Positions 1 to 64,000 of a DNA stretch of 64,000 bases are shown here, piece after piece. The stretch spans positions 1-64,000 of the forward strand of contig OZ037841.1 in NCBI GenBank assembly GCA_964035575.1, given 5' to 3'. This DNA comes from Rhynchopus sp. YZ270_cl-10 (Eukaryota). The position numbers and the translations under genes are program-made. Numbering within the stretch: the stretch's first letter is position 1; the number at the start of each line of letters is the position of its first letter. Below the pieces are notes generated by a model. That model did no database searches and was not told where the DNA came from. It worked only from the letters and a program-made list of their open reading frames with translations.

Positions 1-160
1 CCCATACCCCATACCCCATACCCCATACCCCATACCCCATACCCCATACCCCATACCCCATACCCCATACCCCATACCCCATACCCCATACCCCATACCC
101 CATACCCCATACCCCATACCCCATACCCCATACCCCATACCCCATACCCCATACCCCATA
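1..160. repeat. Telomere-like tandem repeat (CCCCATA)n, G-strand (TATGGGG)n, ~23 units
   Basis: Perfect 7-bp repeat from base 1 with the C-rich strand on +, as expected for a left chromosome end; abrupt junction to unique sequence at 161. Confidence 0.85.
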
Positions 161-1188
161 TCTTTATCGGGTTTGTGGTAGACTTAAGAGCAGATTTGAG
201 ATGTTCACACGCAGTCAAACAGTAATTTTGCCCTATTTAGCAATATTATGACGATTAAGACCCTGTCTGATGGGACTGCGTTTAGGAAGCACTATTTGCG
301 TTGGTTGCGTTCCGTTGTGTTCAGGCGGGTTTGCCGTTGCGTTGCGTTGGCTGTGTTAAGATAGATTACGCTGTGTAAGCACTTCTGGCTTAGTTACGTT
401 GCGTTCAGGTAGTTGCGTTCATATCAGCTGCGTTTTGCTGGTTCCGTTCAGAGCGGGTTTGTGTACATAACTACGATAAAAATCAAGTGGTAAGGCTTAC
501 TACTAGCAAGGGTAAATTTCAACCAGTCCGGGTCAGTGTTTGTGTTTAGTTACGTGCACTGAGTTCAGCTCAGATTGGTTACTGTGGTTGCGTTGTGCTG
601 GTTCCGTGTGTTCGGCGGTCGTTCAGATCGGTGTTCTAATCTAAACGGAACTATGTATTACCTTCGTACATACAGGAATTCATTCAGATTGGTTCTGTGC
701 GTTCGTATTAGTCTACTCAATTCTATTGTTGTATTGTGCTGGTTCCGGTTATGTTAAGTTGCTTTGCAAATTTGATCTATGTGATCTATATGATGTTCGT
801 TTGCGTCCATCAAAGTCCCAAAAATGTCCAAATCGGTTTCTGGTTTCTGGTTTCTCTTTGTTTTGAGTTTCCTGTTAAAAGGCTACCAGTTCCAACCCAG
901 TTGCTCAATACCTGTACAACAATATTGGTAATGAACTTGCTAATGATTTCAGTCATTACGAAAATATACACTTCTTCTCCATATTTCACACTTCAGAATA
1001 CCTCCATCACACTCCCATGTCTGATGATCACTTTGGAAACTAGCAGAACATAACACCAACCGCCTTTCTACACCACAATAACATGCATACCCATGGTTGC
1101 TCACCCACCCAAAGGTCAAGTATCATAAAAGTAGACCAGTCTTCTATCAGCCACACCAGCTGGATAACGATGGTTGCTCACTTCTCGT

Positions 1189-1371
1189 GCGGGTTTACGG
1201 GTTTGCGGGTTTGCGGGTTTGCGGGTTTGCGGGTTTGCGGGTTTGCGGGTTTGCGGGTTTGCGGGTTTGCGGGTTTGCGGGTTTACGGGTTTGCGGGTTT
1301 GCGGGTTTGCGGGTTTGCGGGTTTGCGGGTTTGCGGGTTTGCGGGTTTGCGGGTTTGCGGGTTTGCGGGTT
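1189..1371. repeat. (GCGGGTTT)n microsatellite, ~23 units, at an element junction
   Basis: Read directly; flanked by ...CTTCTCGT and TCTAGTTATTACGG. Confidence 0.97.
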
Positions 1372-4300
1372 TCTAGTTATTACGGGTTTGAGGGGTACAA
1401 AATGGCGACGCTGCAGGATTGCTGGATCGCGTGGTCCCAGTATTTCTGATAATACACTCCGGTAGATTGGGGCCCAAAAACGACGTAATGTACTGGGTTT
1501 GGATGTTAGCATTTTCTGAAGATACCTAAAATGGGTGCGGCATTTCACGGCTATTTTTGTGAAGGAATTGACGATATTTTGTGGTTCTAAGGTGTGTGTA
1601 TTGTATGTGACGAAAATTTCAAAATGTGACATAAGTATGAAATATGGCCAGTATGCCCATAAAATGAGGCCATTGCAACCCTGGAGGACCACATTGGACA
1701 TATTGGGCCAAATTTAGGTGTGTAAGTGTATCGGCTTTAAAATATTTTTTTTCGTGATTTTTGGGGTCATTTTTTGGCTGGGAAAATTGGGCCACATTTA
1801 ACCACAACTACTCAAAACATCAAATCTGTGGCTTTAATGGACTGATTGGGCGTTTTTATGACCTGGACATGGGGGTCAGATACCATTTTAGACATGTTAA
1901 AAATTGGTCAGAAGACCCTGAGAGAAGAACCAAGGTCAAATTGACCTTGAGTACTGGGTCAAATTTGTGTGGGAAAAATGCCCAGTACATAATTGTTGAT
2001 GCGCAAAAGTGCAAAATTCCTTCAGCAATGGCTTCATATGACATTTCCATAACCTGGACATGGGGGTCAGACTCCACTTTTGACCACCTAAAATTTGGTC
2101 ATACACATGTATGAGACCCCAAAAACCAGGATTTTGACCAAAAAATTTTTCCCAGCAATTTTTGCCTACAAAAAATCGAAAAAAAAATTTTTTGATTTTG
2201 GCTCTCCGGAGTCTGTGCGTGCTGTGGTGGGGTCAATTTGCGCTGAGAAATGGGTATTTTTGACCTAAAATGCATGTATCAGTTTTTACATGATTTTTGG
2301 TGTTTTTGGGTTTTAGGTGGGTTTTTTGGTCAGTACCTAATTTCTGATGCTCAAAAGTACAAAATTCCTTCGGCAATGGCTTCATAGGACATTTCCATAA
2401 CCTGGACATGGGGGTCAGACTCCACTTTTGACCACCTGAAATTTGGTCATACACATGTATGAGACCCAAAAACCAGGATTTTTGACCAAAAAATATTTTC
2501 CCACCAATTTTTGCCTACAAAAAATCGAAAAAAAAAAAATTTGATTTTGGCTCTCCGGAGTCTGTGCGTGCAGTGATGGGGTCAATTTGCGCTGAGAAAT
2601 GGGTATTTTTGACCTAAAATGCATGTATCAGTTTTTACATGATTTTTGGTGTTTTGGGGGTTTTAGGTGGGTTTTTTGGTCAGTACATAATGTGCAATGC
2701 TCAAAAGTACAAAATTCCTTCGACAATCGCTTCATAGGACATTTCCATAACCTGAACATGGGGGTCAGACACCACATTAGAGCAGCTAAAATTTGGTCAT
2801 ACACACGTATGAGACCCCAAAAACCAGGATTTTGACCAAAAAATTTTTCCCAGCAATTTTTGCCTACAAAAAATCGAAAAAAAAAATTTTTGATTTTGGC
2901 TCTCCGGAGTCTGTGCGTGCAGTGATGGGGTCAATTTGCGCTGAGAAATGGGTATTTTTGACCTAAAATGCATGTATCAGTTTTTACATGATTTTTGGTG
3001 TTTTTGGGGTTTTAGGTGGGTTTTTTGGTCAGTACCTAATTTCTGATGCTCAAAAGTACAAAATTCCTTCGACAATCGCTTCATAGGACATTTCCATAAC
3101 CTGGACATGGGGGTCAGACTCAACTTTTGACCACCTAAAATTTGGTAATACACATGTATGAGACCCCAAAAACCAGGATTTTGACCAAAAAATTTTTCCC
3201 AGCAATTTTTGCCTACAAAAAATCGAAAAAAAATATTTTTGATTTTGGGTCTCCGGAGTCTGTGTGTGCTGTGATGGGGTCAATTTGCGCTGAGAAATGG
3301 GTATTTTTGACCTAAAATGCATGTATCAGTTTTTACATGATTTTTGGTGTTTTGGGGGTTTTAGGTGGGTTTTTTGGTCAGTACATAATGTGCAATGCTC
3401 AAAAGTACAAAATTCCTTCGACAATCGCTTCATAGGACATTTCCATAACCTGAACATGGGGGTCAGACACCACATTAGAGCAGCTAAAATTTGGTCATAC
3501 ACACGTATGAGACCCCAAAAACCAGGATTTTGACCAAAAAATTTTTCCCAGCAATTTTTGCCTACAAAAAATCGAAAAAAAAAATTTTTGATTTTGGCTC
3601 TCCGGAGTCTGTGTGTGCTGTGATGGGGTCAATTTGCGCTGAGAAATGGGTATTTTTGACCTAAAATTCATGTTTCAGTTTTTACATGTTTTTTGGTGTT
3701 TTTGGGGTATTGTGTGGGTTTTTTGGTCAGTACATAATGTGCAATGCTCAAAAGTACCAAATTCCTTCGCAATGGCTTCATAGGACATTTCCATAACCTG
3801 GACATGGGGGTCAGACACCACTTTTGACCACCTGAAAATTGGTCATACACATGTATGATACCCCAAAAACCAGGATTTTTGACCAAAAAATTTTCCAAGC
3901 AATTTTTGCCTACAAAAAATCAAAAAAAAAAAATTTTGATTTTGGGTCTCTGGAGTCTGTGCGTGCTGTGGTGGGGTCAATTTGCACTGAGAAATGGGTA
4001 TTTTTGACTTAAAATGCATGTATCAGTTTTTACATGATTTTAGAAAACAGAAAACCACCATATTTTTGACATTGATGACAGGCTTCCCAGCACAAGTCAG
4101 TATTTAGAACAGTGTCGTTGTTCATTGGAAGCACAACGATTATCGCTTGCCACACAACTTTGTCAAACATGGGAAGTCTCAAAATAAACGTGCCTTCCTT
4201 ACGTTAAGATGTGTGGAAAATAGCCAAGCACACAAGTACCATTATTTTGACACTGGTAGCAGTCTTCCCCGGAGATGATAGTAAATAACATTGTGCAAAC

Positions 4301-4830
4301 TGTGCAAACTTTCTTATAGTCATGCAAACCTGAAAAATTAATAGCGGCGGAGCAACCACACCACAACCAGACAAGCTTGCTACATGTTGGCGAGCTTTCT
4401 TATCCCTGTGAGTAATTTTGCGGCGGATCCAAACAGCTTAACAACCACAGTCTCTTATGTGTCAATATTAGCGGCGGAGCAAAATATCCTTCCTTAAACA
4501 CACTGCTAAACTGCTAAATTTAGCAGTTTTTGTCCAAATATTTAGTGGGTAAATCCTGCTACATTTCAGTGACCTTTTCTGATAATCTTTTACTGTATCA
4601 GTCATGTCAGCAGCATGTATCAATAATTCGCGGCGTAGCAACGTGCCTCAAAACTACATCCTCCCTCATTTTTTCGACTTTTCCGTGTCATTTCAGGTTT
4701 TCTATGAATGAATAGGCACATCATTTCTGCATTTGCTGAATGATACTAATCTTTTCAACATTAATTCGCGGCGGAGCCATATACCTCACAACCACACCAT
4801 CCTGCCACATTTTAGCGAGCTTTCTTCTAG
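1372..4830. mobile_element. Non-autonomous Helitron derivative: A-type left end, ~6 x 349-bp internal repeat, alternative right end
   Basis: Begins TCTAGTTATTACGG and ends GCGAGCTTTCTTCTAG. The first ~900 bp are near-identical to 6689-7600, and the last ~255 bp match 21615-21870. No RepHel coding sequence. Confidence 0.8.
1985..4040. repeat. 349-bp tandem repeat, ~6 copies, internal to the element
   Basis: Anchor CCTGRACATGGGGGTCAGAC at 2053, 2401, 2751, 3100, 3449 and 3797 (period 348-350). Copies 3 and 5 share diagnostic variants (GACACCACATTAGAGCAGCT), indicating a 698-bp higher-order duplication. Confidence 0.95.
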
Positions 4831-4831
4831 T

Positions 4832-6688
4832 GCGGGTTTGCGGGTTTGCGGGTTTGCGGGTTTGCGGGTTTGCGGGTTTGCGGGTTTGCGGGTTTGCGGG
4901 TTTGCGGGTTTGCGGGTTTGCGGGTTTGCGGGTTTGCGGGTTTGCGGGTTTGCGGGTTTGCGGGTTTGCGGGTTTGCGGGTTTGCGGGTTTGCGGGTTTG
5001 CGGGTTTGCGGGTTTGCGGGTTTGCGGGTTTGCGGGTTTGCGGGTTTGCGGGTTTGCGGGTTTGCGGGTTTGCGGGTTTGCGGGTTTACGGGTTTGCGGG
5101 TTTGCGGGTTTGCGGGTTTGCGGGTTTGCGGGTTTGCGGGTTTGCGGGTTTACGGGTTTGCGGGTTTGCGGGTTTGCGGGTTTGCGGGTTTGCGGGTTTG
5201 CGGGTTTGCGGGTTTGCGGGTTTGCGGGTTTGCGGGTTTGCGGGTTTGCGGGTTTGCGGGTTTGCGGGTTTGCGGGTTTGCGGGTTTGCGGGTTTACGGG
5301 TTTACGGGTTTGCGGGTTTGCGGGTTTGCGGGTTTGCGGGTTTGCGGGTTTGCGGGTTTGCGGGTTTGCGGGTTTGCGGGTTTACGGGTTTGCGGGTTTG
5401 CGGGTTTGCGGGTTTGCGGGTTTGCGGGTTTGCGGGTTTGCGGGTTTGCGGGTTTGCGGGTTTGCGGGTTTGCGGGTTTGCGGGTTTGCGGGTTTGCGGG
5501 TTTGCGGGTTTGCGGGTTTGCGGGTTTGCGGGTTTGCGGGTTTGCGGGTTTGCGGGTTTGCGGGTTTGCGGGTTTGCGGGTTTGCGGGTTTGCGGGTTTG
5601 CGGGTTTGCGGGTTTGCGGGTTTGCGGGTTTGCGGGTTTGCGGGGTTTGCGGGTTTGCGGGTTTGCGGGTTTGCGGGTTTGCGGGTTTGCGGGTTTGCGG
5701 GTTTGCGGGTTTGCGGGTTTGCGGGTTTGCGGGTTGCGGGTTTGCGGGTTTGCGGGTTTGCGGGTTTGCGGGTTTGCGGGTTTGCGGGTTTGCGGGTTTG
5801 CGGGTTTGCGGGTTTGCGGGTTTGCGGGGTTTGCGGGTTTGCGGGTTTGCGGGTTTGCGGGTTTGCGGGTTTGCGGGTTTGCGGGTTTGCGGGTTTGCGG
5901 GTTTGCGGGTTTGCGGGTTTGCGGGTTTGCGGGTTTGCGGGTTTGCGGGTTTGCGGGTTTGCGGGTTTGCGGGTTTGCGGGTTTGCGGGTTTGCGGGTTT
6001 GCGGGTTTGCGGGTTTGCGGGTTTGCGGGTTTGCGGGTTTGCGGGTTTGCGGGTTTGCGGGTTTGCGGGTTTGCGGGTTTGCGGGTTTGCGGGTTTGCGG
6101 GTTTGCGGGTTTGCGGGTTTGCGGGTTTGCGGGTTTGCGGGTTTGCGGGTTTGCGGGTTTACGAGTTTGCGGGTTTGCGGGTTTGCGGGTTTGCGGGTTT
6201 GCGGGTTTGCGGGTTTGCGGGTTTGCGGGTTTGCGGGTTTGCGGGTTTGCGGGTTTGCGGGTTTGTGGGGTTTGCGGGTTTGCGGGTTTGCGGGTTTACG
6301 GGTTTGCGGGTTTGCGGGTTTGCGGGTTTGCGGGTTTGCGGGTTTGCGGGTTTGCGGGTTTGCGGGTTTGCGGGTTTGCGGGTTTACGGGTTTGCGGGTT
6401 TGCGGGTTTGCGGGTTTGCGGGTTTGCGGGTTTGCGGGTTTGCGGGTTTGCGGGTTTGCGGGTTTGCGGGTTTGCGGGTTTGCGGGTTTGCGGGTTTGCG
6501 GGTTTGCGGGTTTGCGGGTTTGCGGGTTTGCGGGTTTGCGGGTTTGCGGGTTTGCGGGGTTTACGGGTTTGCGGGTTTGCGGGTTTGCGGGTTTGCGGGT
6601 TTGCGGGTTTGCGGGTTTGCGGGTTTGCGGGTTTGCGGGTTTGCGGGTTGCGGGTTTGCGGGTTTGCGGGTTTGCGGGTTTGCGGGTT
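4832..6688. repeat. (GCGGGTTT)n microsatellite, ~232 units
   Basis: Read directly, with rare ACGGGTTT variants and 1-bp slips; flanked by CTAG on both sides. Confidence 0.98.
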
Positions 6689-9600
6689 TCTAGTTATTAC
6701 GGGTTTGAGGGGTACAAAATGGCGACGCTGCAGGATTGCTGGATCGCGTGGTCCCAGTATTTCTGATAATACACTCCGGTAGACTGGGGCCCAAAAACGA
6801 CGTAATGTACTGGGTTTGGATGTTAGCATTTTCTGAAGATACCTAAAATGGGTGCGGCATTTCACGGCTATTTTTGTGAAGGAATTGACGATATTTTGTG
6901 GTTCTAAGGTGTGTGTATTGTATGTGACGAAAATTTCAAAATGTGACATAAGTATGAAATATGGCCAGTATGCCCATAAAATGAGGCCATTGCAACCCTG
7001 GAGGACCACATTGGACATATTGGGCCAAATTTAGGTGTGTAAGTGTATCGGCTTTAAAATATTTTTTTTCGTGATTTTTGGGGTCATTTTTTGGCTGGGA
7101 AAATTGGGCCACATTTAACCACAACTACTCAAAACATCAAATCTGTGGCTTTAATGGACTGATTGGGCGTTTTTATGACCTGGACATGGGGGTCAGATAC
7201 CATTTTAGACATGTTAAAAATTGGTCAGAAGACCCTGAGAGAAGAACCAAGGTCAAATTGACCTTGAGTACTGGGTCAAATTTGTGTGGGAAAAATGCCC
7301 AGTACATAATTGTTGATGCGCAAAAGTGCAAAATTCCTTCAGCAATGGCTTCATATGACATTTCCATAACCTGGACATGGGGGTCAGACTCCACTTTTGA
7401 CCACCTAAAATTTGGTCATACACATGTATGAGACCCCAAAAACCAGGATTTTGACCAAAAAATTTTTCCCAGCAATTTTTGCCTACAAAAAATCGAAAAA
7501 AAAATTTTTTGATTTTGGCTCTCCGGAGTCTGTGCGTGCTGTGGTGGGGTCAATTTGCGCTGAGAAATGGGTATTTTTGACCTAAAATGCATGGATCAGT
7601 TTTTTCATGATTTTTGGTGTTTTTGGTGTTTTGTGTGGGTTTTTTGGTCAGTACATAGTGTGCAGTGATCAAAAGTGCAAAGTTCCTTCGTCAATGGCTT
7701 CACAGGAAATTTTTATGACCGGGACATGGGGGTCAGACTCCACTTTTGACCACCTAAAATTTGGTCATACACACGTGTGAGACCGCAAAAACCAGGATTT
7801 TGACCAAAAAAATTTTCCCAGGTACATAATCTGTGCACTGATCAAGATTACAAAATTCATTTGTATGGATGAATTGAATATCAGGTATGTGTAGGTTTCT
7901 GTGTGGGAAGTGGTGGTGATGAGGATAGGAAAAAAGAAACAGTAAAAGTGCGTGAGCTATTCAGTCATTTTGTGTGTTTTTTCTTTTTCTTTTTCTTTTT
8001 CCTTTTCTCATTTTTGATCTTTTTATTTTTATGGCATGACAATACTCTCACCCGCCAAAGTGAGCGCCTTCTTCAAGGTGTAGTCTTTTTTTAAAGCTAT
8101 GTTTTAACCTCTTCCGCAAACCCGAAAACCCGCAAACCCTATATTTCCTTATTTTTTTTAATCCAAGACAAAAATATTTTCTTCATCACAAGAGAGTATC
8201 TCCGGCTGGGAAGAAAAAAACAACAAAAACTGCTGATCAAACCGGTCAAAAAGTCTCTGTAAAAATAAAAACTGCTACAATTTCCAAACTAATTGATTTT
8301 TTTTAAAACTAAACGAACTCCACAAAAACAGTTTAAAAAAACAGTGAAACAGAAACAAAAATAAAATCCTTTTTTTTTAGATGGGCTAAGCTTACCCAGT
8401 TTTTTTTTTCTCATATTTTTTTTCAATCCAATGAACATGTTCAAACAAATATTTCTTCATCACAAGAGATTTAATCTGATTCTCTCCGGCTGGGAAGAAA
8501 AAAAAAATAAAAATAAAAATAAAAGTCTTTTACAGTAATTTACTGTAAAGAAAAAAAGGAAAAAATTTTTTTAGTCAAGATCACCCGGTTGAAAGTCAGA
8601 AAGGTGATTGTCTGGAAATGTGGGGTAAATTAGGGCTTTTTTATGTTAGGGCTTTTTTATGTGCTTTCAGTACATTTTCTGGAGTTCCTGTACCAATGTT
8701 GAAGTGGGGAGGTTGATAAGTTTGCACTATCAGCAGTCTCTTTTCTGATGGTATTTGCATAAGAACATCTTCAGGAGATTGCCCCTTTGGCAAAAAATGA
8801 AAGCAAGAATATCCTTCTGTCTCATAGGTCCTAGAAGTGACTACTGTGATAAGAGACCTAAGCATGAGAGACATCAGTGCTACTTCTACCTCCTGCGCAT
8901 AACTGTCATCGGCATTATTTGTGACGCGTTGAAGAAGGTCATCAAAGTTCCTGTTTTGTTTACAGGTGTGGTAGAAAAGTTTAGGTTTGCGGGTTTGCGG
9001 GTTTGCACAAATACAAATGCTACATACCTTTTTTTTTTCTCTTCATCATCAAAAAGTAAGGGATGCTCCTGGATCATAATCTCATTCCTGAGCAAGAACT
9101 CTGCAAATCTTCTGCGTAGAGCATGACCATCATTTCTTTTTCCAGTGAGGAGCTGCTGTATGGCGTGATAGAAACACGTTCCATCACCAGTAACGTCAAT
9201 TTGTCCGAGGTTGAACCTGCTCAGAACATGTTGAATATTATTCTCATTGTTCCTGTAAAATATTGGTAATGGTTTTAAAGTTGTTGACCACGAAAAAAAC
9301 ATACCTATTTTTTTCAGAAACTGTAGTTGTTACATTTTTTTGTGGATGAGAAGCTTCTGGAACGTTGTTGTGGATATATTCCCTGTATAAATTGTAGTGT
9401 ATTATTTAATTAAAAATGTACAATAATTACTGTAACCATAATGTAATGCTAACATACCATCCCCCCTCTGGAAATGTAAAAGGATAGAAATCCATCGGTT
9501 GTTCTTCTTCATCCTTTGTCCAGGGAGTTACTACAAGAGACCTTCCACATGCCGGGTTGTTGATTTCGTGTTCTTTATCATCAATGGGGCTTCCATCAGC

Positions 9601-12600
9601 ATCAGGGGAACACACCACTGCAGGGTTTTCTGAAGGGTTTGCTGCACGTTCATGCATGGCCTTTGCATATACAGCCTCTGTAAGCCTCAGGTCCCGCTTC
9701 AGCTGATTCCTCCTTTCCTTACTGACCTTCATCTTTATTCCCCCAACTGACTCCTCAATGGCAGAGATGACCTCCTGGTGGACACAGTTATACAAATTTG
9801 TATCACCTTGAGGTGGAAGACAAATCTTGATGTCATTCCTGCTGCACACCCTTGACATTGCAACGTACAGATGGCCATGAGAGAAGCAGGGCGACTGTGA
9901 CACATCAAGACCCACCCTCCTGAGAGTTTGTCCCTGAGACTTATTAATCGTCATGGCAAAAGACAGCCGCACTGGAAACTGCTGACGTACAAAGTCGATG
10001 GTGAGATCCTTCGCATCACCATCGCAGGGCAGGCGAGGTATGGCAACAGTTTCTGGCTTTTTCCCGTTTTTGTTCCGCCACTCGCATTCTTCCGCCAGGT
10101 GGGTGCAGACAAGGATGTTCTTCTTCACCTCCTTCACAACAAGACGCGTTCCATTGCACAGTCCACCTGCGGGGTCGAGGTTCTTTAGAAGCATTACAAT
10201 ACAGTTGACCTTCAGGTTCAGGATGTGTGGAGGAAGACGTGCATGGTTCATTGCATTGAGTGCTTCAGTGGTGAAGAATTCATTTGCTCCTGGGTCCTTG
10301 CAGGTATCCTCTGACATACGGGTAATTGTCTCTCCTGGGAAGCTGCTGAGAATTTTTTCGTTCATGTAGACCTGGCGTGCGTTTGTAGGGCACAGCAAAG
10401 CACAGTTCTCATACATTCCATTCTTGATGTCAGGAAATGTAAAGTCAATCAAAGTATCCTCAGTCACCTTTTTGTTCTTTTTTTCAAAAATGATAGCATG
10501 TGGCACCTGCATAACTGCTTCTGTGTCCTCAGCACCCTCCACATCCCCAGCCTCATTCACAGACCCATCACCAACCTTCATGAGGTACTCACGGAAAGCG
10601 TCGTCGTCCTTCACCCTCATGACCTGCGTCAGGGACATTTTTGTGAGTTGGTTCCAGAGGTATGAGTTGTGGAGCGAAATCGAGATGCTTTCAAAGCTCC
10701 CTTTGTTTGCCCCTGGAACAGGAAGGATTTGCCTGAAGTCTCCTCCAAGAAGCACTGTCACTCCTCCAAATGGTTGTGAACATCCCCTCAACCTCTGAAG
10801 CGTTCTGTCTACTACCTCTATGCTTGCCTTTTGTGCCATTACCACCTCATCCCAGACAATGAGGTCAGTGCGCCTTAGGAGTTCGACATGGTCATCATCA
10901 AGCCCGCACATCCGCTTTGAGTTTGGTTCAAGATCTATTGGGATCTTAAATCGGCTGTGTGCAGTTCTGCCTCCTGGTAGTAGTGTAGCTGCTATCCCTG
11001 ATGTTGCCACAGCGATTGAAAAGCGGTCCTCCTCATTCTGTTGAAGTGGCTGCTGCTGCTGCTGCTGCTGTTGTTGCTTTGCCCTTGCCCTTCTGCTCCT
11101 GGCCCAGTACAAACACGCCTGGTACAGGAATGTCTTGCCTGTTCCTGCTGCACCCTGCAAAAATATGACCTTCCCCTGGTTACCTTCAACAGATTCCTTC
11201 ACAGAGTTGAAGACATTCTGCTGCCCTTCGTTGAGGTTGCCTTGAATCTGTTCAAACTTCTTCAGCATTTCACCCTCATCATACCTCTCTGTGTTTAAGA
11301 CAAACTCTGTGCTCTGCCCTGTAGTACCTTCAGGAGGAGTGGGGAGCCCAAGATCTTCCATTGAAGTCTTAACGTTCGCTTCCTTAAGGAGCCGTTGCAT
11401 GTCTAGCAAAGCTTTACGCTTCTCTTTAGGGTAGATGTGGTTGCTTGGTACTGCTTCCTCCCGTTCCTGCCTTTTTACTCTGTCCAAAGGTGGCGCACAC
11501 AGCTCAAACTCATACTCTGCCCACGCCTTTGCAACGTCTTCTGCAGTGGTCATGTAGTTTATTATTATCATTGCAAACGTAAAACGGATGGCACGTGAGG
11601 ACAGTGTTGTATTGATGCACTCTTTCAGGGCGTTACGCAAGATTGCCCCATCATGGATAAGCCCCATTTCTGCTGCAGCTGCATAAAATGTAGGATGAAC
11701 AACGGAGCCTATGGTTCTCAGCTCTTCAAAGCTGCATGATCCACGCTTGCACAGAAGAAGTAGACGGAGACAGTGCAACTCCTTATCCTTTACAGGGGCC
11801 CAGTACATCCTGCCGATTGAGAGGCCTTCTCCTTCATTTCTTTTTGAGTGAGGGCCAGGTTTATAGCAGCCTTCTTCCTCGCACCACCCATATCCCGGTC
11901 TCAGCTGCCATTCCTTCTTTTCTCTGGGGTAAGAAAAGAATTCTGGGACATCATTGTAAAGTAGTTTGTCAAAGCCTTTGTAGGCTTCATGTGCTGGAAT
12001 GCCTTCACGATGCTTCTTGCATCTTTCATTTGCTTCGAAAAAGGCAAGGAGTGTACTTTTGGATTTTGCAGCCGCATCCCTTCTCCTTGAGTCATCACCA
12101 TAATTCTTTAAAGGAAAGTACACCCTCTGCTCATCTTCGAGGTGGATGTGGAGTCTCTGCACTCCTGGGTAAATCCGCACCATCTTTGTTCCGAGTAGGT
12201 ACCCACAAGCATCAGCCGCAGTCAAACAATGTGCCTTCAGAAACCTCATAATGCTCCCAGTGGTCGTGGTCGTTGTTGTGGTTTTTGCTTCTGATGGCCC
12301 TCCTTTATGCTTTGTATCTTCCTTTATCACACCATCTACCTCATTCTCCCCCTTGAATAAGTATTTGAACAAATATTTAGCAGCAAGAATCCCGCGCACT
12401 GCCTCAATGTTGATGTGGCACTGGTACTTGAGGAGAAGATACGCATTGTAGGGAACCACCCACCTGTTGTTCCTCTGGTTTGGGTGAGTAGTTTCCCCTG
12501 GGTGTTTTTCTTTCCATTTCTTCACAACGTCTGGATCCACATAAGACAGTATCCCATGATCCCTTCTTATGACAAAGGCGTAGCCATCATTGCCAGAGGT

Positions 12601-50829: not shown

Positions 50830-51040
50830 AGTTTTTTGAGAAATAGTTCACCTGTTTTTGGTGTGTGAGTACAAAAGTGCTATGAAAAGAGAAATGAGGG
50901 GTGAGCCAAGTTTAATTCATTTTTCTATTCAATTTTTTCGGCATTCACATTTGTAAAAATGCAAAACCTTCAGACAATAAAAAAAAAGTTCTGTTCACAA
51001 CCACACCAGCCTCCTACATTTTAGCGAGCTTTCTTCTTGT

Positions 51041-51143
51041 GCGGGTTTGCGGGTTTGCGGGTTTGCGGGTTTGCGGGTTTGCGGGTTTGCGGGTTTGCGG
51101 GTTTGCGGGTTTGCGGGTTTGCGGGTTTGCGGGTTTGCGGGTT
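51041..51143. repeat. (GCGGGTTT)13 junction tract
   Basis: Read directly. Confidence 0.97.
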
Positions 51144-51190
51144 ACACTCTGTATATTACCGCGTTTCAGGTAGCTGAGCCGGCATCTAGT

Positions 51191-54100: not shown

Positions 54101-55110
54101 TGTGGTGTGTGTGGGTGTGGCGGGTCTGCGGGTCTGCGGGTCTGCGGGTCTGCGGGTGTGGTGTGTGTGGGTGTGGCGGGTCTGCGGGTCTGCGGGTCGG
54201 CGGGTCTGCGGGTGTGGTGTGTGTGGGTGTGGCGGGTCTGCGGGTCTGCGGGTCTGCGGGTGTGGTGTGTGTGGGTGTGGCGGGTCTGCGGGTCTGCGGG
54301 TCGGCGGGTCTGCGGGTGTGGTGTGTGTGAGTGTGGCGGGTCTGCGGGTCTGCGGGTCTGCGGGTCTGCGGGTCTGCGGGTCTGCGGGTCTGCGGGTCTG
54401 CGGGTCTGCGGGTCTGCGGGTCTGCGGGTCTGCGGGTCTGCGGGTGTGGTGTGTGTGGGTGTGGCGGGTCTGCGGGTCTGCGGGTCTGCGGGTCTGCGGG
54501 TCTGCGGGTCTGCGGGTCGGCGGGTCGGCGGGTCTGCGGGTGTGGTGTGTGTGGGTGTGGCGGGTCAGCGGGTCTGCGGGTCTGCGGGTCTGCGGGTCTG
54601 CGGGTCGGCGGGTCGGCGGGTCTGCGGGTGTGGTGTGTGTGGGTGTGGCGGGTCTGCGGGTCTGCGGGTCTGCGGGTCTGCGGGTCGGCGGGTCTGCGGG
54701 TGTGGTGTGTGTGGGTGTGGCGGGTCTGCGGGTCTGCGGGTCTGCGGGTCTGCGGGTCTGCGGGTCTGCGGGTCTGCGGGTCTGCGGGTCTGCGGGTCTG
54801 CGGGTCTGCGGGTCTGCGGGTCTGCGGGTGTGGTGTGTGTGGGTGTGGCGGGTCTGCGGGTCTGCGGGTCTGCGGGTCTGCGGGTCTGCGGGTCTGCGGG
54901 TCTGCGGGTCTGCGGGTCTGCGGGTCTGCGGGTCTGCGGGTCTGCGGGTCTGCGGGTCTGCGGGTCTGCGGGTCTGCGGGTCTGCGGGTCTGCGGGTCTG
55001 CGGGTGTGGTGTGTGTGGGTGTGGCGGGTCTGCGGGTCTGCGGGTCGGCGGGTCTGCGGGTCTGCGGGTCTGCGGGTCTGCGGGTGTGGTGTGTGTGGGT
55101 GTAGCGGGTC
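51191..55110. repeat. Compound satellite: (GCGGGTCT)n interrupted by the 24-bp unit GCGGGTGTGGTGTGTGTGGGTGTG
   Basis: Read directly; the 24-bp unit equals 3 x 8 and preserves the phase. Confidence 0.97.
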
Positions 55111-55139
55111 TGTGGCGGGTTTGCGGGTTTGCGGGTTTG

Positions 55140-57041
55140 TGGCAAATGATGGCAAATGATGGCAAATGATGGCAAATCATGGCAAATTATGGCAAATGAT
55201 GGCAAATGATGGCAAATGATGGCAAATGATGGCAAATGATGGCAAATGATGGCAAATGATGGCAAATGATGGCAAATGATGGCAAATCTTGGCAAATTAT
55301 GGCAAATGATGGCAAATTATGGCAAATGATGGCAAATCATGGGAAATGATGGCAAATCATGGCAAATCATGGCAAATCATGGCAAATGATGGCAAATGAT
55401 GGCAAATGATGGCAAATGATGGCAAATGATGGCAAATCATGGCAAATCATGGAAAATTATGGCAAATGATGGCAAATGATGGCAAATGATGGCAAATCAT
55501 GGCAAATGATGGCAAATGATGGCAAATCATGGCAAATCATGGCAAATGATGGCAAATCATGGCAAATCATGGCAAATCATGGCAAATCATGGCAAATCAT
55601 GGCAAATCATGGCAAATTATGGCAAATGATGGCAAATCATGGCAAATGATGGCAAATCATGGCAAATTATGGCAAATGATGGCAAATGATGGCAAATGAT
55701 GGCAAATGATGGCAAATCATGGCAAATCATGGCAAATCATGGCAAATCATGGCAAATCATGGCAAATGATGGCAAATCATGGCAAATGATGGCAAATCAT
55801 GGTAAATCCCTAGTTAGCCATAAAACTGATATCCAAAAAAAATTTACAATGTTCGGAAATTTTGAACAGTATTTATGTGGGGTGGTTTTTGGGCCCAAAA
55901 TATCAACACAGTGTCTCCACTGGGGAAATTGCGTCAATTTAAGTGGGATAAGTGCTATGTGGCGAAAAAAATCGAAAATTTTGAAATTTGTTCACCACAG
56001 TGGGAAAATAGTGCAAATCATGGCAAAGCATGGCAAATCATGGCAAATCATGGCAAATGATGGCAAATGATGGCAAATCATGGCAAATGATGGCAACTGA
56101 TGGCAAATGATGGCAAATCATGGCAAATTATGGCAAATGATGGCAAAACATGGCAAATGATGGCAAAACATGGCAAATGATGGCAAATCATGGCAAATCA
56201 TGGCAAATCCTGGCAAAACAATGCAAATGATGGCAAATCCTGGCAAATGATGGCAAATGATGGCAAATGATGGCAAATCATGGCAAAACATGGCAAATCA
56301 TGGCAAATCATGGTAAATCCCAAGTTAGCCATAAAACTGATATCCAAAAAAAATTTACAATGTTCGGAAATTTTGAACAGTATTTATGTGGGGTGGTTTT
56401 TGGGCCCAAAATTTCAACACAGTGTCTCCACTGGGGAAATTGCGTCAATTTAAGTGGGATAAGTGCTATGTGGCGAAAAAAATCGAAAATTTTGAAATTT
56501 GTTCACTACAGTGGGAAAATAGTGCAAATCATGGCAAATCATGGCAAATCATGGCAAAGCATGGCAAATCATGGCAAATGATGGCAAATCATGGCAAATC
56601 ATGGCAAATCATGGTAAATCCCAAGTTAGCCATAAAACTGATATCCAAAAAATATTTACAATGTTCGGAAATTTTGAACAGTATTTATGTGGGGTGGTTT
56701 TTGGGCCCAAAATTTCAACACAGTGTCTCCACTGGGGAAATTGCGTCAATTTAAGTGGGATAAGTGCTATGTGGCGAAAAAAATCGAAAATTTTGAAATT
56801 TGTTCACTACAGTGGGAAAATAGTGCAAATCATGGCAAATCATGGCAAATCATGGCAAATGATGGCAAATCATGGCAAATCATGGCAAATGATGGCAAAT
56901 GATGGCAAATGATGGCAAATCATGGCAAATTATGGCAAATGATGGCAAATCATGGCAAATGATGGGAAATCATGGCAAATGATGGCAAATCATGGCAAAG
57001 CATGGCAAATGATGGCAAATCCTGGCAAATGATGGGAAATC
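55140..57041. repeat. 10-bp satellite (ATGGCAAATS)n with three near-identical ~215-bp inserts (from 55801, 56312, 56613)
   Basis: Read directly. Confidence 0.96.
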
Positions 57042-57042
57042 A

Positions 57043-57504
57043 TTGACACTCCGTGACACTTTTCAGAACACTTCTGATACTGATGCCCCTGAAGTTGTAG
57101 AGACCTCAGTCGCTGGAGTGAATACGCTTCTACCCGATGTGAGCAGCTTGCAGGCTACTCACAAAAATATTCTTGGGGATCACATTGCAATGGTGGTGGT
57201 GATGGAGTACCAGAAGAGGGGTCTGCCTCATGCTAATGCAATTCTTTGGAACAACAACAGAACATCACCGAAGAATCCTTTAAATGTGGGTCACATCGTA
57301 CAACTCCCTGGACCAGCACACCCAAACCTCTACAAAGCTTTCAGTCAGTATCTGATGAACAACAGGTGGATGGTTCATTACAATCTTCTCCTGAAATATC
57401 GGCGCCACAGAAACAATGAGGAAGTGCGCGGGGTCCTTGTTGTTAAGTATTTGTTTAAATACTTATTCAAGGGTGAGCCTGTGACAGGTCTATTGATGCA
57501 ATGA
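57043..57504 (+). pseudogene. Internally deleted Helitron Rep relic
   Basis: KNILGDHIAMVVVMEYQKRGLPHANAILWNNN (HUH changed to HAN), NNRWMVHYN and KYLFKYLFKG are colinear with A/B Rep, with large in-frame deletions. Opposite strand to the intact genes. Confidence 0.88.
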
Positions 57505-58215
57505 TTTGTGTGGTAGAGTTGTGAACATTAAGGATAAAATAAGAAAACAAATAAAAAATAGCGATAAGTGGGGAGATGTCTTTGTGGGCTTGCGGGTTTG
57601 CGGGTTTTTTTGTCTCAGTTAATTTTTGTTTTTGCAAAGGAAATCTCTTGTGATGAAGAAAACATTATTTTTGGGGAGTTTGTTGTTAATTGCATAAAAA
57701 GAAAAGAAAAAAAGAAAAAGAAAAAGATAAAAGTTGAAGTGAAGTTACAATTACTGGCAGTAAAGCAAATAAAAAACTTCAACACCAAAACACAGTTCAA
57801 ATGATCTAAGAAGTGTTTATTTTTCTATTTTAAATTGTTTTTTGTTTGGGTTTGTATTGGATACTTCTTCCCAGCCGGAGAGAAATCTCTTGTGATGAAG
57901 AAAACATTGTTTTTGGGGAGTTTGTTGTTGATTGCATAAAAAAAAAGGGAAAAAAAGAAAAAGAGAAAAGGTGTATCTACATTTATCAGAGCAAACCCGC
58001 AAACAAAATAACTGGGGTGTCACAGTTTTTGTTTTTTTTTATTTATTGTTTTTAGTGCCTGCTTCCGTCAGAGGTGTTTGTCAAAAATGAAATATGTCTG
58101 AACAAAAACAAAGAACACTTCAAATTTCGTTTTTTTACTACTAGTAAAGTAATTTTACGCTTCCAAAACACACACACTACCTCAGTCAATCATACACATA
58201 TTCATACACAAAAAA

Positions 58216-58719
58216 ATGCCCAAAACCCAAAGGCAACAGCTGCAGCACGACATTGACACGTTTTTGGACCTTCCTGTCACAGCTGGCCCTATAGAGCTAG
58301 CCCTGCACAAGGCAGTGGTGGCTGTCCTCTACTGCGGAGGAATTAATGAATCCGTGTGTGCAACACTGAAATCCACTGCAATGACAAGTGACGATTATGG
58401 TGCCACATTCGAGTACAAGATCGGCGGGAAGCAAAAAAGATTCTCAATTCCAGTGGGAACTCCGGCTTACGATGCCGTTCACAACTATGTGAGCGTGCGT
58501 ACGGGGTTCAAAAGCCCATACTTCTTCCTGGAATGTGACGCCACAAAATGCTTTCTGAGAGACAGGAGGATGCCAGTGAAAGCAGTGCACATGATCCTGC
58601 AAAGAATGGCTGTTACCGTAGGCACTAATCCTGCGGCTAAGCGACCTCCGTATGATGAGCATGACGCGCAGGCTGTACTAAATATTTTTTTCTACCATGT
58701 CATCTCTCTCTTTAAGTAA
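58216..58719 (+). CDS. 167-aa protein resembling a degenerate tyrosine-recombinase (Crypton/integrase-like) catalytic domain
   Basis: ATG start and a GC-richer island within AT-rich flanks. The pattern DIDTFL...KAVVAVLYCGGIN-E...YVSVR...YFFL...MAVTVG..P...YDEH follows YR domain order as I recall it, but the catalytic R, HxxR and Y appear lost. Recognition by eye only. Confidence 0.5.
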   Translation: MPKTQRQQLQHDIDTFLDLPVTAGPIELALHKAVVAVLYCGGINESVCATLKSTAMTSDDYGATFEYKIGGKQKRFSIPVGTPAYDAVHNYVSVRTGFKSPYFFLECDATKCFLRDRRMPVKAVHMILQRMAVTVGTNPAAKRPPYDEHDAQAVLNIFFYHVISLFK

Positions 58720-59162
58720 AAGAAATAGCAATACGTTTGTGGGGTGTGGGTTTCTAGGGTTTCGGGTTTTTTCGTAGTAGTAGTATCTTAAGGTGTCTTC
58801 AATATTTTGGTAGTAGTAGTATTATAAATCGTCTTAAATTTTTTGGTAGTGGTAGTATGCGGGTATTTTAAAACATCTTCAATCAGAAAAAAAAACAAAA
58901 AAAACAAAACAAAAAAAAAGAAAATAATGTCACGATAAAAACAAAGAAAAGAATCTATATATTTTTTCCTTTTTTGCAAAACATTGTACCCCTCCCAAAA
59001 CACACACATCACAACAGAGTAGTAACACTATGTTAGAGTAAAATGAAATAGAAAAGGTGAGACAACGTATTAGATAGTTGTAATCTAACATAATTACGCT
59101 TCAGGCACACCAGCCAGCTATCACACACACCAGCTAGATAACGATGGTTGCTCACTTCTCGT

Positions 59163-59369
59163 GCGGGTTTGCGGGTTTGCGGGTTTGCGGGTTTGCGGGT
59201 TTGCGGGTTTGCGGGTTTGCGGGTTTGCGGGTTTGCGGGTTTGCGGGTTTGCGGGTTTGCGGGTTTGCGGGTTTGCGGGTTTGCGGGTTTGCGGGTTTGC
59301 GGGTTTGCGGGTTTGCGGGTTTGCGGGTTTGCGGGTTTGCGGGTTTGCGGGTTTGCGGGTTTGCGGGTT
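59163..59369. repeat. (GCGGGTTT)n junction tract, ~26 units
   Basis: Read directly. Confidence 0.97.
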
Positions 59370-59416
59370 ACTCTCTGTATATTACCGCGTTTCAGGTAGC
59401 TGAGCCGGCATCTAGT

Positions 59417-62400
59417 TGCGGGTGTGGCGGGTCTGCGGGTCTGCGGGTCGGCGGGTCTGCGGGTGTGGTGTGTGTGGGTGTGGCGGGTCTGCGGGTCTGC
59501 GGGTCTGCGGGTCTGCGGGTGTGGTGTGTGTGGGTGTGGCGGGTCTGCGGGTCTGCGGGTCTGCGGGTCTGCGGGTGTGGTGTGTGTGGGTGTGGCGGGT
59601 CTGCGGGTCTGCGGGTCTGCGGGTCTGCGGGTCTGCGGGTGTGGTGTGTGTGGGTGTGGCGGGTCTGCGGGTCTGCGGGTCTGCGGGTCTGCGGGTGTGG
59701 TGTGTGTGGGTGTGGCGGGTCTGCGGGTCTGCGGGTCTGCGGGTCTGCGGGTCTGCGGGTCTGCGGGTCTGCGGGTCTGCGGGTCTGCGGGTGTGGTGTG
59801 TGTGGGTGTGGCGGGTCTGCGGGTCTGCGGGTCTGCGGGTCTGCGGGTGTGGTGTGTGTGGGTGTGGCGGGTCTGCGGGTCTGCGGGTCTGCGGGTGTGG
59901 TGTGTGTGGGTGTGGCGGGTCTGCGGGTCTGCGGGTCGGCGGGTCTGCGGGTGTGGTGTGTGTGGGTGTGGCGGGTCTGCGGGTCTGCGGGTCTGCGGGT
60001 CTGCGGGTCTGCGGGTCTGCGGGTCTGCGGGTCTGCGGGTCTGCGGGTCTGCGGGTCTGCGGGTCTGCGGGTCTGCGGGTCTGCGGGTCTGCGGGTCTGC
60101 GGGTCTGCGGGTGTGGTGTGTGTGGGTGTGGCGGGTCTGCGGGTCGGCGGGTCTGCGGGTGTGGTGTGTGTGGGTGTGGCGGGTCTGCGGGTCTGCGGGT
60201 CTGCGGGTCTGCGGGTCTGCGGGTCTGCGGGTCTGCGGGTCTGCGGGTCTGCGGGTGTGGTGTGTGTGGGTGTGGCGGGTCTGCGGGTCTGCGGGTCGGC
60301 GGGTCTGCGGGTGTGGTGTGTGTGGGTGTGGCGGGTCTGCGGGTCTGCGGGTCTGCGGGTCTGCGGGTCTGCGGGTCTGCGGGTCTGCGGGTCTGCGGGT
60401 CTGCGGGTCTGCGGGTCTGCGGGTCTGCGGGTCTGCGGGTCTGCGGGTCTGCGGGTGTGGTGTGTGTGGGTGTGGCGGGTCTGCGGGTCTGCGGGTCTGC
60501 GGGTCTGCGGGTCTGCGGGTCTGCGGGTGTGGTGTGTGTGGGTGTGGCGGGTCTGCGGGTCTGCGGGTCTGCGGGTCTGCGGGTCTGCGGGTCTGCGGGT
60601 CTGCGGGTCTGCGGGTCTGCGGGTCTGCGGGTGTGGTGTGTGTGGGTGTGGCGGGTCTGCGGGTCTGCGGGTCTGCGGGTCTGCGGGTCTGCGGGTGTGG
60701 TGTGTGTGGGTGTGGCGGGTCTGCGGGTCTGCGGGTCTGCGGTTCTGCGGGTCTGCGGGTGTGGTGTGTGTGGGTGTGGCGGGTCTGCGGGTCTGCGGGT
60801 CTGCGGGTCTGCGGGTCTGCGGGTCTGCGGGTCTGCGGGTGTGGTGTGTGTGGGTGTGGCGGGTCTGCGGGTCTGCGGGTCTGCGGGTCGGCGGGTCTGC
60901 GGGTGTGGTGTGTGTGGGTGTGGCGGGTCTGCGGGTCTGCGGGTCGGCGGGTCTGCGGGTGTGGTGTGTGTGGGTGTGGCGGGTCTGCGGGTCTGCGGGT
61001 GTGGTGTGTGTGGGTGTGGCGGGTCTGCGGGTCTGCGGGTCGGCGGGTCTGCGGGTGTGGTGTGTGTGAGTGTGGCGGGTCTGCGGGTCTGCGGGTCTGC
61101 GGGTCTGCGGGTCTGCGGGTCTGCGGGTCTGCGGGTCTGCGGGTCTGCGGGTCTGCGGGTCTGCGGGTCTGCGGGTGTGGTGTGTGTGGGTGTGGCGGGT
61201 CTGCGGGTCTGCGGGTCTGCGGGTCTGCGGGTCTGCGGGTCTGCGGGTCGGCGGGTCGGCGGGTCTGCGGGTGTGGTGTGTGTGGGTGTGGCGGGTCAGC
61301 GGGTCTGCGGGTCTGCGGGTCTGCGGGTCTGCGGGTCTGCGGGTCTGCGGGTCTGCGGGTCTGCGGGTCGGCGGGTCTGCGGGTGTGGTGTGTGTGGGTG
61401 TGGCGGGTCTGCGGGTCTGCGGGTCTGCGGGTCTGCGGGTCTGCGGGTCTGCGGGTCGGCGGGTCTGCGGGTGTGGTGTGTGTGGGTGTGGCGGGTCTGC
61501 GGGTCTGCGGGTCTGCGGGTCTGCGGGTCTGCGGGTCTGCGGGTCTGCGGGTCTGCGGGTCTGCGGGTCTGCGGGTCTGCGGGTCTGCGGGTCTGCGGGT
61601 CTGCGGGTCTGCGGGTCTGCGGGTCTGCGGGTGTGGTGTGTGTGGGTGTGGCGGGTCTGCGGGTCTGCGGGTCTGCGGGTCTGCGGGTCTGCGGGTCTGC
61701 GGGTCTGCGGGTCTGCGGGTCTGCGTGTCTGCGGGTCTGCGGGTCTGCGGGTCTGCGGGTGTGGTGTGTGTGGGTGTGGCGGGTCTGCGGGTCTGCGGGT
61801 CTGCGGGTCTGCGGGTCTGCGGGTCTGCGGGTCTGCGGGTCTGCGGGTCTGCGGGTCTGCGGGTCTGCGGGTCTGCGGGTCTGCGGGTCTGCGGGTCTGC
61901 GGGTCTGCGGGTCGGCGGGTCGGCGGGTCTGCGGGTGTGGTGTGTGTGGGTGTGGCGGGTCAGCGGGTCAGCGGGTCTGCGGGTCTGCGGGTCTGCGGGT
62001 CTGCGGGTCTGCGGGTCTGCGGGTCTGCGGGTCGGCGGGTCTGCGGGTGTGGTGTGTGTGGGTGTGGCGGGTCTGCGGGTCTGCGGGTCTGCGGGTCTGC
62101 GGGTCTGCGGGTCTGCGGGTCTGCGGGTCTGCGGGTCTGCGGGTCTGCGTGTCTGCGGGTCTGCGGGTCTGCGGGTCTGCGGGTCTGCGGGTCTGCGGGT
62201 CTGCGGGTCTGCGGGTCTGCGGGTCTGCGGGTCTGCGGGTCTGCGGGTCTGCGGGTCTGCGGGTCTGCGGGTCTGCGGGTCTGCGGGTCTGCGGGTCTGC
62301 GGGTCGGCGGGTCGGCGGGTCTGCGGGTGTGGTGTGTGTGGGTGTGGCGGGTCAGCGGGTCTGCGGGTCTGCGGGTCTGCGGGTCTGCGGGTCTGCGGGT

Positions 62401-62720
62401 CTGCGGGTCTGCGGGTCTGCGGGTCGGCGGGTCTGCGGGTGTGGTGTGTGTGGGTGTGGCGGGTCTGCGGGTCTGCGGGTCTGCGGGTCTGCGGGTCTGC
62501 GGGTCGGCGGGTCTGCGGGTGTGGTGTGTGTGGGTGTGGCGGGTCTGCGGGTCTGCGGGTCTGCGGGTCTGCGGGTCTGCGGGTCTGCGGGTCTGCGGGT
62601 CTGCGGGTCTGCGGGTCTGCGGGTCTGCGGGTCTGCGGGTCTGCGGGTCTGCGGGTCTGCGGGTCTGCGGGTCTGCGGGTCTGCGGGTCTGCGGGTCTGC
62701 GGGTCTGCGGGTCTGCGGGT
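59417..62720. repeat. Compound (GCGGGTCT)n / TG-rich 24-mer satellite, copy 2
   Basis: Read directly. Confidence 0.97.
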
Positions 62721-63324
62721 ATGATGGCAAAACATGGCAAATGATGGCAAATCATGGCAAATCATGGCAAATCCTGGCAAAACAATGCAAATGATGGCAA
62801 ATCCTGGCAAATGATGGCAAATGATGGCAAATGATGGCAAATCATGGCAAAACATGGCAAATCATGGCAAATCATGGTAAATCCCAAGTTAGCCATAAAA
62901 CTGATATCCAAAAAATATTTACAATGTTCGGAAATTTTGAACAGTATTTATGTGGGGTGGTTTTTGGGCCCAAAATTTCAACACAGTGTCTCCACTGGGG
63001 AAATTGCGTCAATTTAAGTGGGATAAGTGCTATGTGGCGAAAAAAATCGAAAATTTTGAAATTTGTTCACTACAGTGGGAAAATAGTGCAAATCATGGCA
63101 AATCATGGCAAAGCATGGCAAATCATGGCAAATCATGGCAAATGATGGCAAATCATGGCAAATCATGGCAAATGATGGCAAATGATGGCAAATGATGGCA
63201 AATCATGGCAAATTATGGCAAATGATGGCAAATCATGGCAAATGATGGGAAATCATGGCAAATGATGGCAAATCATGGCAAAGCATGGCAAATGATGGCA
63301 AATCCTGGCAAATGATGGGAAATC
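62721..63324. repeat. 10-bp (ATGGCAAATS)n satellite with one ~215-bp insert
   Basis: Read directly. Confidence 0.95.
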
Positions 63325-63325
63325 A

Positions 63326-63787
63326 TTGACACTCCGTGACACTTTTCAGAACACTTCTGATACTGATGCCCCTGAAGTTGTAGAGACCTCAGTCGCTGGA
63401 GTGAATACGCTTCTACCCGATGTGAGCAGCTTGCAGGCTACTCACAAAAATATTCTTGGGGATCACATTGCAATGGTGGTGGTGATGGAGTACCAGAAGA
63501 GGGGTCTGCCTCATGCTAATGCAATTCTTTGGAACAACAACAGAACATCACCGAAGAATCCTTTAAATGTGGGTCACATCGTACAACTCCCTGGACCAGC
63601 ACACCCAAACCTCTACAAAGCTTTCAGTCAGTATCTGATGAACAACAGGTGGATGGTTCATTACAATCTTCTCCTGAAATATCGGCGCCACAGAAACAAT
63701 GAGGAAGTGCGCGGGGTCCTTGTTGTTAAGTATTTGTTTAAATACTTATTCAAGGGTGAGCCTGTGACAGGTCTATTGATGCAATGA
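63326..63787 (+). pseudogene. Helitron Rep relic, copy 2
   Basis: Identical translation to 57043-57504. Confidence 0.88.
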
Positions 63788-64000
63788 TTTGTGTGGTAGA
63801 GTTGTGAACATTAAGGATAAAATAAGAAAACAAATAAAAAATAGCGATAAGTGGGGAGATGTCTTTGTGGGCTTGCGGGTTTGCGGGTTTTTTTGTCTCA
63901 GTTAATTTTTGTTTTTGCAAAGGAAATCTCTTGTGATGAAGAAAACATTATTTTTGGGGAGTTTGTTGTTAATTGCATAAAAAGAAAAGAAAAAAAGAAA

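Follow-up and report, generated by a model that had tools for sequence, protein, structure and literature searches.

Stacked Helitron units at a likely chromosome end of Rhynchopus sp. YZ270_cl-10 share one register in an 8-bp repeat

What places a series of Helitrons head to tail, and in one orientation, at what is likely the end of a chromosome? The question is raised by the first 64,000 nucleotides of contig OZ037841.1 (assembly GCA_964035575.1) of Rhynchopus sp. YZ270_cl-10, the whole stretch that is called the window here. Self-comparison and analysis of the ends resolve it into 11 Helitron units (U0 to U10; Table 1), which are arranged head to tail and fill 55.2 of the 64 kb. The ends of these units meet an 8-bp repeat, (TGCGGGTT)n, in one register, and we consider it probable that the RepHel transposase of these elements inserts sequence-specifically at GCGGGTT^TGCGGG of this subtelomeric repeat, with local duplication adding to the array. 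Eight of the ten unit boundaries consist of the pure repeat, one is an assembly gap of 200 N and one is a 5.9-kb non-Helitron block. In array order, the eight tracts measure 23, about 232, 6, 2, 2, 6, 13, and 26 units, and a few units are imperfect in the longest, between U1 and U2. By summed coordinates, the units account for 55,238 bases, the pure tracts for 2,482, the interruption for 5,920, the telomere for 160, and the gap for 200.

An earlier note on this DNA, made from its letters, described about ten units with tracts between most of them, beginning 1.2 kb inside the telomere. The tracts, GCGGGTTT, are present at eight of ten boundaries as described, the units number 11, and the array probably starts at position 161, directly at the telomere repeat. 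The long repeat stretches at 51.1-55.1 and 59.4-62.7 kb turned out to be no spacers; they are a variant satellite, TGCGGGTC, inside C-type units. Its view that copies within a family are near-identical was borne out, as the family-A copies are 4 substitutions, one 1-bp indel, and one 16-bp indel apart over 8.4 kb, and a 3.86-kb family-B block (15406-19263 and 29917-33774) differs at 1 base between its two copies, which have a 6-unit tract in common. The note also saw no recognisable host gene, and no Rfam family or transfer RNA was found within the 64-kb window. That all RepHel genes point toward the telomere holds for the five of five long RepHel reading frames, which lie on the - strand, and fails for two Rep pseudogene fragments on the + strand (57.06-57.48 and 63.34-63.76 kb).

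The evidence for a fixed insertion site comes from the ends themselves. All eight right ends read TTCT(A/T/C)G and are directly followed by TGCGGGTT; the terminal tetranucleotide is CTAG in five, CTTG in one, and CTCG in two. The intact left ends of families A and B (six of six) read GCGGGTT and then TCTAG, with a T^T junction, and the register common to the ends is GCGGGTT^TGCGGG. The 5'-TC end is present at all six on the strand opposite the open reading frame (ORF). On the + strand the order 5'-TC...CTNG-3' followed by T is the Helitron polarity, and the RepHel gene is antisense to it. The right ends fall into three types (B/A, D, and C) that differ in sequence and all keep CACACCA(G/T)C 36-38 bp from the end. 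When U4, U5, U6, or U9 is excised in silico, a pure (TGCGGGTT)n remains (four of four tested whole), and excision of U1 leaves the repeat continuous across the 48 bases examined. The TGCGGGTC arrays of U9 and U10 (275 + 249 = 524 units) have no T^T step and no insertion inside them, and since they are related copies they count about once.

In the Helitron pathway, RepHel nicks 5' of the left-end T and the Pif1 helicase peels off one strand; the process stops at the right end, a circle forms, and the strand is transferred to a position 5' of a T in a nicked target (PMC4778049). Applied to this locus, the target would be read as an asymmetric 8-bp repeat, with the left end distal and the gene aimed at the chromosome end, so that position and orientation would be the same for every copy. 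An insertion would split a tract into two shorter targets, and because each insertion would leave two of them, elements would pile up. Derivatives without an ORF but with the same ends would be mobilised in trans, and blocks would be copied by local duplication or by ectopic exchange between chromosome ends. More speculatively, the outermost unit may have been nicked at its left end, the chromosome may have broken there, and telomerase may have healed the break. The common register, the restored repeat, the variable tract length (2 to 232 units), and the occurrence of three right-end types at one site are counted for insertion, as is the germline of Paramecium, where the same geometry has led to the same argument. 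The absence of elements from the variant satellite, the catalytic residues and purifying selection of RepHel, and the recurrence of the elements in other runs also speak for it. The repeated insertion proposed in the earlier note is thereby supported and narrowed to one position of a repeat that had been taken for a mere spacer.

Its other proposal, that rolling-circle concatemers were inserted as one piece, fared worse. The head-to-tail polarity and the adjacent near-copies U4 and U5 would suit such an origin. On the other hand, there are no direct joints of a right end to a left end in the window, and none among 15 joints listed from other sequencing runs (9 more lie beyond these). Neighbouring units are moreover unlike in family and length, and they are separated by unequal spacers of 2-232 units. 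For the window we therefore regard concatemers as largely refuted already, with very little probability left to them.

Several observations weigh against insertion at a fixed site as a full account of the array. Removal of a unit restores the register, a result from which duplicated whole 8-bp units would escape detection. Both C-type left ends have 4 extra bases ahead of the TC motif, after a pure tract; U8 lacks its left end and adjoins a different 8-bp repeat; and U0 adjoins the telomere rather than a tract. As CTAG occurs in both element ends, the choice of the + strand as the transposed strand rests on the TC/CTNG^T polarity. No pair of empty and filled alleles was seen among the sequences compared, and two single contigs of run X7 carry the right-end motif reverse-complemented beside the tract, which our reading does not account for. 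The presence of a protein 1 residue from the U8 RepHel on 11 contigs (the longest of 2.16 Mb), within a 34-member cluster, counts for the reading, but these contigs may span more than one assembly. Finally, the near-identity of the 3.86-kb block means that the junctions represent fewer than 14 independent events and that the array is partly the product of duplication.

The last point also belongs to another explanation, in which recombination between chromosome ends, unequal or ectopic, multiplied a small number of old insertions, and the tract is a hot spot of recombination or slippage and no transposase target. The single difference and the equal tract length of the duplicated block, the occurrence of an identical protein on 11 contigs, and the truncation of U7 and U8 all speak for it. 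It leaves unexplained why three unrelated right-end types and two families with 71% identical proteins share one register, why the transposase genes have a ratio of nonsynonymous to synonymous substitution rates (dN/dS) of 0.17, and why deletion derivatives that keep both ends recur in other runs. We think it improbable that recombination of this kind explains the array by itself.

The structure of the right ends raises a further alternative. No terminal hairpin was found at any right end, where the last 60 nt fold with 0 to -3.8 kcal/mol; in the opposite orientation the values are -2.0 to -4.6 kcal/mol, with no terminal stem. Terminal inverted repeats were also not found in the 300-bp ends of six units (the C unit with its inner left boundary), the best matches being internal ones of 8-10 bp. 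It is possible that the element carries and renews its own target: transposition would start at GCGGGTT^TCTAG and stop at a variable GCGGGTT^T within the tract, circles would hold k units, and each insertion would seed a new target. In its favour, besides the lack of a hairpin, hairpin-less Helraiser reads through more often (PMC4778049), the left-end nick and the site in the tract have 7 upstream bases in common, and a tract follows eight of eight right ends. Tract-like sequence is also found inside elements, with 2 units in an intron of A and the 4-kb variant satellite in C. Against this, conservation of the right ends between families extends through the last base, together with a motif at fixed spacing, which fits termination at CTNG, and a tract of 232 units is more easily understood as pre-existing or grown by slippage. 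We hold the renewal of the target by the element to be rather unlikely, though it deserves more credit than the recombination scheme.

Three other interpretations of the tracts and strands were rejected. An element on the - strand would begin with AC and insert before A, the tract has the wrong polarity to be a telomerase product for an end at position 1, and its variation between 2 and 232 units does not suit a fixed part of the element. A few other features of the ends can be mentioned. The A-type left end (1372-1397) and that of U0 (161-180) contain, 8-12 bases inside the terminus, the sequence CGGGTTTG, which is part of the target repeat; a single motif may be recognised by the enzyme in donor and target alike. 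At 4334-4401, a degenerate internal D-type right end lies upstream of the functional one, as after read-through or with nested ends. A second perfect 8-bp repeat, (AGCTAAGG)48, is present at 40019-40404 and adjoins U8 at the end that has lost its first 98 bp; it may serve another family as a target or be the scar of a repair event.

An assembly artefact, with repeats collapsed or mis-joined, was also considered. The gap at 15206-15405 splits the array, with the 3' part of a family-A gene on one side joined across it to a family-B gene of which the 5' part stands on the other, so the order of units across it is only putative, and none of the contigs examined spans the stretch. Both sides of the gap have the same architecture without any further N, the copies have their own substitutions, indels, and tract lengths, and sequencing runs from other studies again contain the element ends and one deletion joint. 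The main features of the array are real, and there is very little chance that they were produced by the assembly.

These recurrences come from sequences beyond the window. The U8 stretch is found wholly or partly in 10 of 22 sequencing runs, and at half or more in 7 (6 studies). When U6 was compared with 4 of those 10 runs, element sequence was found in all four. The deletion joint of U4 recurs in X3 and X5, as does a second deletion joint; a gap of 23 letters marks the site of the U6 frameshift in contigs of X1, X3, and X5; and a C-type right end meets the tract in 6 contigs of X5. A contig of X7 reaches only 11 letters into the tract, which is under the bridging threshold, and among the pieces listed from four runs no contig spans the array stretch. 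The range of flanks in other runs is that of 24 loose ends listed, with 332 more beyond. Other members of the 34-member cluster and further families (the P0008, P0014, and P0012 clusters) are on contigs of 0.02-2.2 Mb, some of which have equal lengths across clusters. The junction pattern had 0 matches in metagenome contigs and 0 in viral contigs, and 599 pattern matches to RepHel in metagenome contigs included 0 confirmed ones. In runs X11 and X16-X22, which bear the study or species label of X1, almost none of the U8 words were found, a hint, short of proof, that this label does not name the owner of the chromosome. Related RepHels also form the P0011 and P0016 clusters, with 70 and 19 members on contigs of up to 3.5 and 0.8 Mb, respectively.

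The enzyme that would perform the insertion is encoded intact in U8. This RepHel has 2263 amino acids (- strand, ATG at 49732, to 43028) and is the sole intact RepHel ORF in the window, as the second one (U2) is cut by the gap and the full-length B copy (U6) is frameshifted. It contains C2H2 fingers, a Helitron_like_N domain (Pfam, E value 2e-34), and a PIF1 domain (E value 8e-54). It matches Helraiser (PDB 7lcc) with an E value of 3e-149, and both HUH histidines, both tyrosines, and Walker A are aligned, residues that were shown to be essential in Helraiser (PMC4778049). The RepHels of families A and B have 71% protein identity and a dN/dS of 0.165 over 1733 codons (0.066 in Rep), and by this measure they are under purifying selection. 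Rep motif 2, MVTEYQKRGLPHCH in both families, is GLPH without a preceding F/Y-x-R, which is the state of Helitrons (HLE1) (PMC4067079). A GSPH motif, DUF6570, and an AP endonuclease gave no match in the A and B RepHels. Downstream of RepHel in both families there are short GTATGT...AG intron candidates and then an OTU-like domain (about 42.2-42.9 kb in U8). The OTU-like exons have a homologue in the C-terminus of P0014, which is unspliced (E value 1e-28), they have no Pfam match when taken alone, and the relatives P0010, P0013, P0017, and P0182 have OTU matches that range from weak to passing. RepHel is likely spliced in frame to an OTU-like domain, as predicted from the intron candidates.

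In a FastTree analysis of 170 rows, which comprised 165 of 182 search matches (after a coverage filter) together with window and cluster proteins, a branch with a support of 100 splits off 13 proteins that include A and B. This branch is separate from the named plant, animal, and fungal matches, and the same was seen in a tree of 54 rows. As the trees are unrooted and have no HLE2 or Paramecium rows, they show a distinct branch but not its position.

The closest known system is found in Paramecium aurelia. At germline chromosome ends of this ciliate, Helitrons are inserted in C4A2 telomeric repeats and cap the chromosomes; their left end is distal, clade B ORFs point toward the end, and satellites, ORF-less derivatives, and a third clade are described (PMC13085455). 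The lack of precedent for Helitron arrays at chromosome ends that the earlier note implied does not stand beside this report. In both organisms, a short repeat in runs of variable length borders the stacked Helitrons left and right and is regarded as the target. The distal left end, the inward right end, and the ORF that faces the end (clade B there) are also common to both, here for one end only, as are satellites between ORF and ends and abundant ORF-less derivatives (PMC13085455). Unlike in Rhynchopus, the target in Paramecium is the telomeric repeat (C-rich strand), whereas here it is another 8-bp repeat with the opposite G/C polarity. The right ends there have a stem-loop and CCAA, and here they have no hairpin and end in CT(A/T/C)G. 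The transposases there belong to neither HLE1 nor HLE2 and make up a third clade (PMC13085455), whereas ours carries the HLE1 motif and can be aligned with Helraiser in both Rep and helicase. End names and Rep motifs gave 0 matches in seven supplements of that paper. The window is thus a variant of repeat-targeted, end-associated Helitrons, in which the non-telomeric target, the opposite polarity, and an HLE1-like transposase in a distinct branch are new. No Helitron targeted to a non-telomeric microsatellite was found among the listings of an open-access literature library, a scope that excludes subscription papers and Repbase; for target-specific Helitrons, PMC13085455 was the sole direct precedent among these listings.

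Like HLE1 elements such as Helraiser, the units encode a RepHel with zinc fingers, HUH-Y2 nuclease, Pif1 helicase, and GLPH, they have a 5'-TC end, CTAG at five of eight right ends, and a T after it (PMC4778049, PMC11417382), and OTU cargo is known in HLE1 (PMC11417382). The 3' end of HLE1 elements reads CTRR, and their insertion makes no target-site duplication. Unlike HLE1, the units are inserted at T^T in a fixed repeat and not at dispersed A^T sites, the hairpin that HLE1 has some 11 nt before the 3' end is missing, and the ORF is antisense to the TC...CTAG strand (PMC4778049, PMC11417382). The OTU-like domain is downstream here and likely spliced in frame, while HELIANO found OTU upstream (PMC11417382). 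Because 46 of 1751 Helraiser insertions were at non-AT sites, including TT (PMC4778049), a T^T site is not new in itself; what is new is the fixed repeat. HLE2 elements (Helentron, Helitron2, and proto-Helentron) also insert at T^T, and HLE2-reverse structures are known, but the terminal inverted repeats, GSPH, DUF6570, and AP endonuclease of HLE2 were not found here (PMC4067079, PMC11417382). HLE2 membership was rejected, T^T being the only one of the tested HLE2 features that agreed. In Hydractinia, Helitron-related tandem sequence is likewise concentrated at subtelomeres; unlike here, it is a decayed 372-bp repeat of partial affinity, and the excerpts of that paper report no intact array elements and no target repeat (PMC11934779).

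Oriented arrays at chromosome ends are also formed by TRAS/SART, MoTeR, HeT-A/TART, and yeast Y' elements, with TRAS/SART inserting at one set position in a short repeat. These systems are based on reverse transcriptase or recombination, and their targets are telomeric repeats or the end itself.

The tandem repeat (CCCCATA)n has no other tandem copy in the window and touches U0 only. It is likely the true chromosome end, being C-rich on the + strand as at a left end. We found no telomere paper for TATGGGG/CCCCATA in the literature searched, and it may be an unreported telomere repeat. To locate left ends, 6372 TC sites on both strands were scored against the A left end (mean 2.0, standard deviation 5.4). 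Besides the six known ends and tract-derived matches, high scores were obtained only at 161, 51148, and 59372/59374. Site 161 scores 24, and the left end of U0 starts exactly where the telomere repeat stops; the last 53 bp of U0 are 88.7% identical to 59109-59161. The presence of the telomere on the first base of U0, at this single junction, suggests that a break at a transposase nick may have been healed there.

Satellites of 349, 172, 10, and 301 bp are found at 1983-4041 and in the left parts of A and B units, at 35989-36943, and at 55140-57043. The 349-bp unit varies between units from about 1 to 5.9 copies. The right end of U7 is cut by a fragment at 34485-34920 (+) that is 94% identical to part of P0251, which belongs to a 48-member cluster with no Pfam match; its motifs may resemble the part of CRE/R2-like retroelements that precedes the reverse transcriptase. 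In U9, the ORF at 58198-58719 (+; 173 amino acids) has a tyrosine-recombinase domain as its nearest ESM Atlas cluster (0.97), with 5 relatives and no Pfam or PHROG match. Tyrosine recombinases usually have a catalytic Arg and HxxR. As these are not evident, the ORF is likely dead or a DNA-binding derivative.

Table 1. Units, tracts, and other features along the window
Feature	Positions	Strand	Remarks
Telomere-like (CCCCATA)n	1..160	.	22.9 copies, 100% matches
U0, non-autonomous, 1.03 kb	161..1187	+	left-end-like TC motif at telomere repeat; C-type right end (CTCG)
Tract, 23 units	1188..1371	+	
U1, non-autonomous	1372..4830	+	A-type left end; 349-bp satellite x5.9; D-type right end (CTAG)
Tract, ~232 units	4831..6688	+	
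U2, family-A element	6689..15205	+	RepHel on - strand (9427-15205), cut by gap
Assembly gap, 200 N	15206..15405	.	
U3, family-B element	15406..17667	+	5' part of RepHel and right end (CTAG)
Tract, 6 units	17668..17715	+	
U4, non-autonomous, internal-deletion derivative of B	17716..19491	+	4-bp microhomology at break
Tract, 2 units	19492..19507	+	
U5, non-autonomous	19508..21870	+	B left part including OTU-like exons; D-type right end
Tract, 2 units	21871..21886	+	
U6, full-length family-B element, 10.3 kb	21887..32178	+	RepHel on - strand, frameshift near 29830
Tract, 6 units	32179..32226	+	
U7, U5-type copy	32227..34484	+	right end removed by interruption
Non-Helitron interruption	34485..40404	.	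repeat-family protein gene fragment, 172-bp satellite, 0.68-kb duplication, (AGCTAAGG)48
U8, family-A element without first 98 bp	40405..51039	+	intact RepHel on - strand; right end CTTG
Tract, 13 units	51040..51143	+	
U9, C-type non-autonomous	51144..59161	+	left-end-like motif, 4-kb TGCGGGTC satellite, 10-bp and 301-bp satellites
U9, further content		+	Rep fragment (+ strand), tyrosine-recombinase-like ORF (58198-58719), right end CTCG
Tract, 26 units	59162..59369	+	
U10, second C-type unit	59370..64000	+	continues past window end

The target choice of Helitrons is usually a dinucleotide. Here, an intact natural RepHel is found with what is apparently one bond of an 8-bp repeat as its target, in one orientation, so that target recognition becomes testable in comparison with Helraiser, and the enzyme could be a lead for site-specific rolling-circle integration. 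In a bolder and rather doubtful extension, an HLE1-type branch would have independently evolved strict recognition of a non-telomeric 8-bp repeat and would spread this repeat by hairpin-less read-through, giving a self-renewing subtelomere at many chromosome ends, with the distal edge reset by telomerase healing at a left-end nick. Beside Paramecium, the array would add a second case, probably an independent one, of DNA transposons that build chromosome ends. A private satellite as the target, and not the telomere repeat, would separate the targeting of telomeric DNA from life at chromosome ends.

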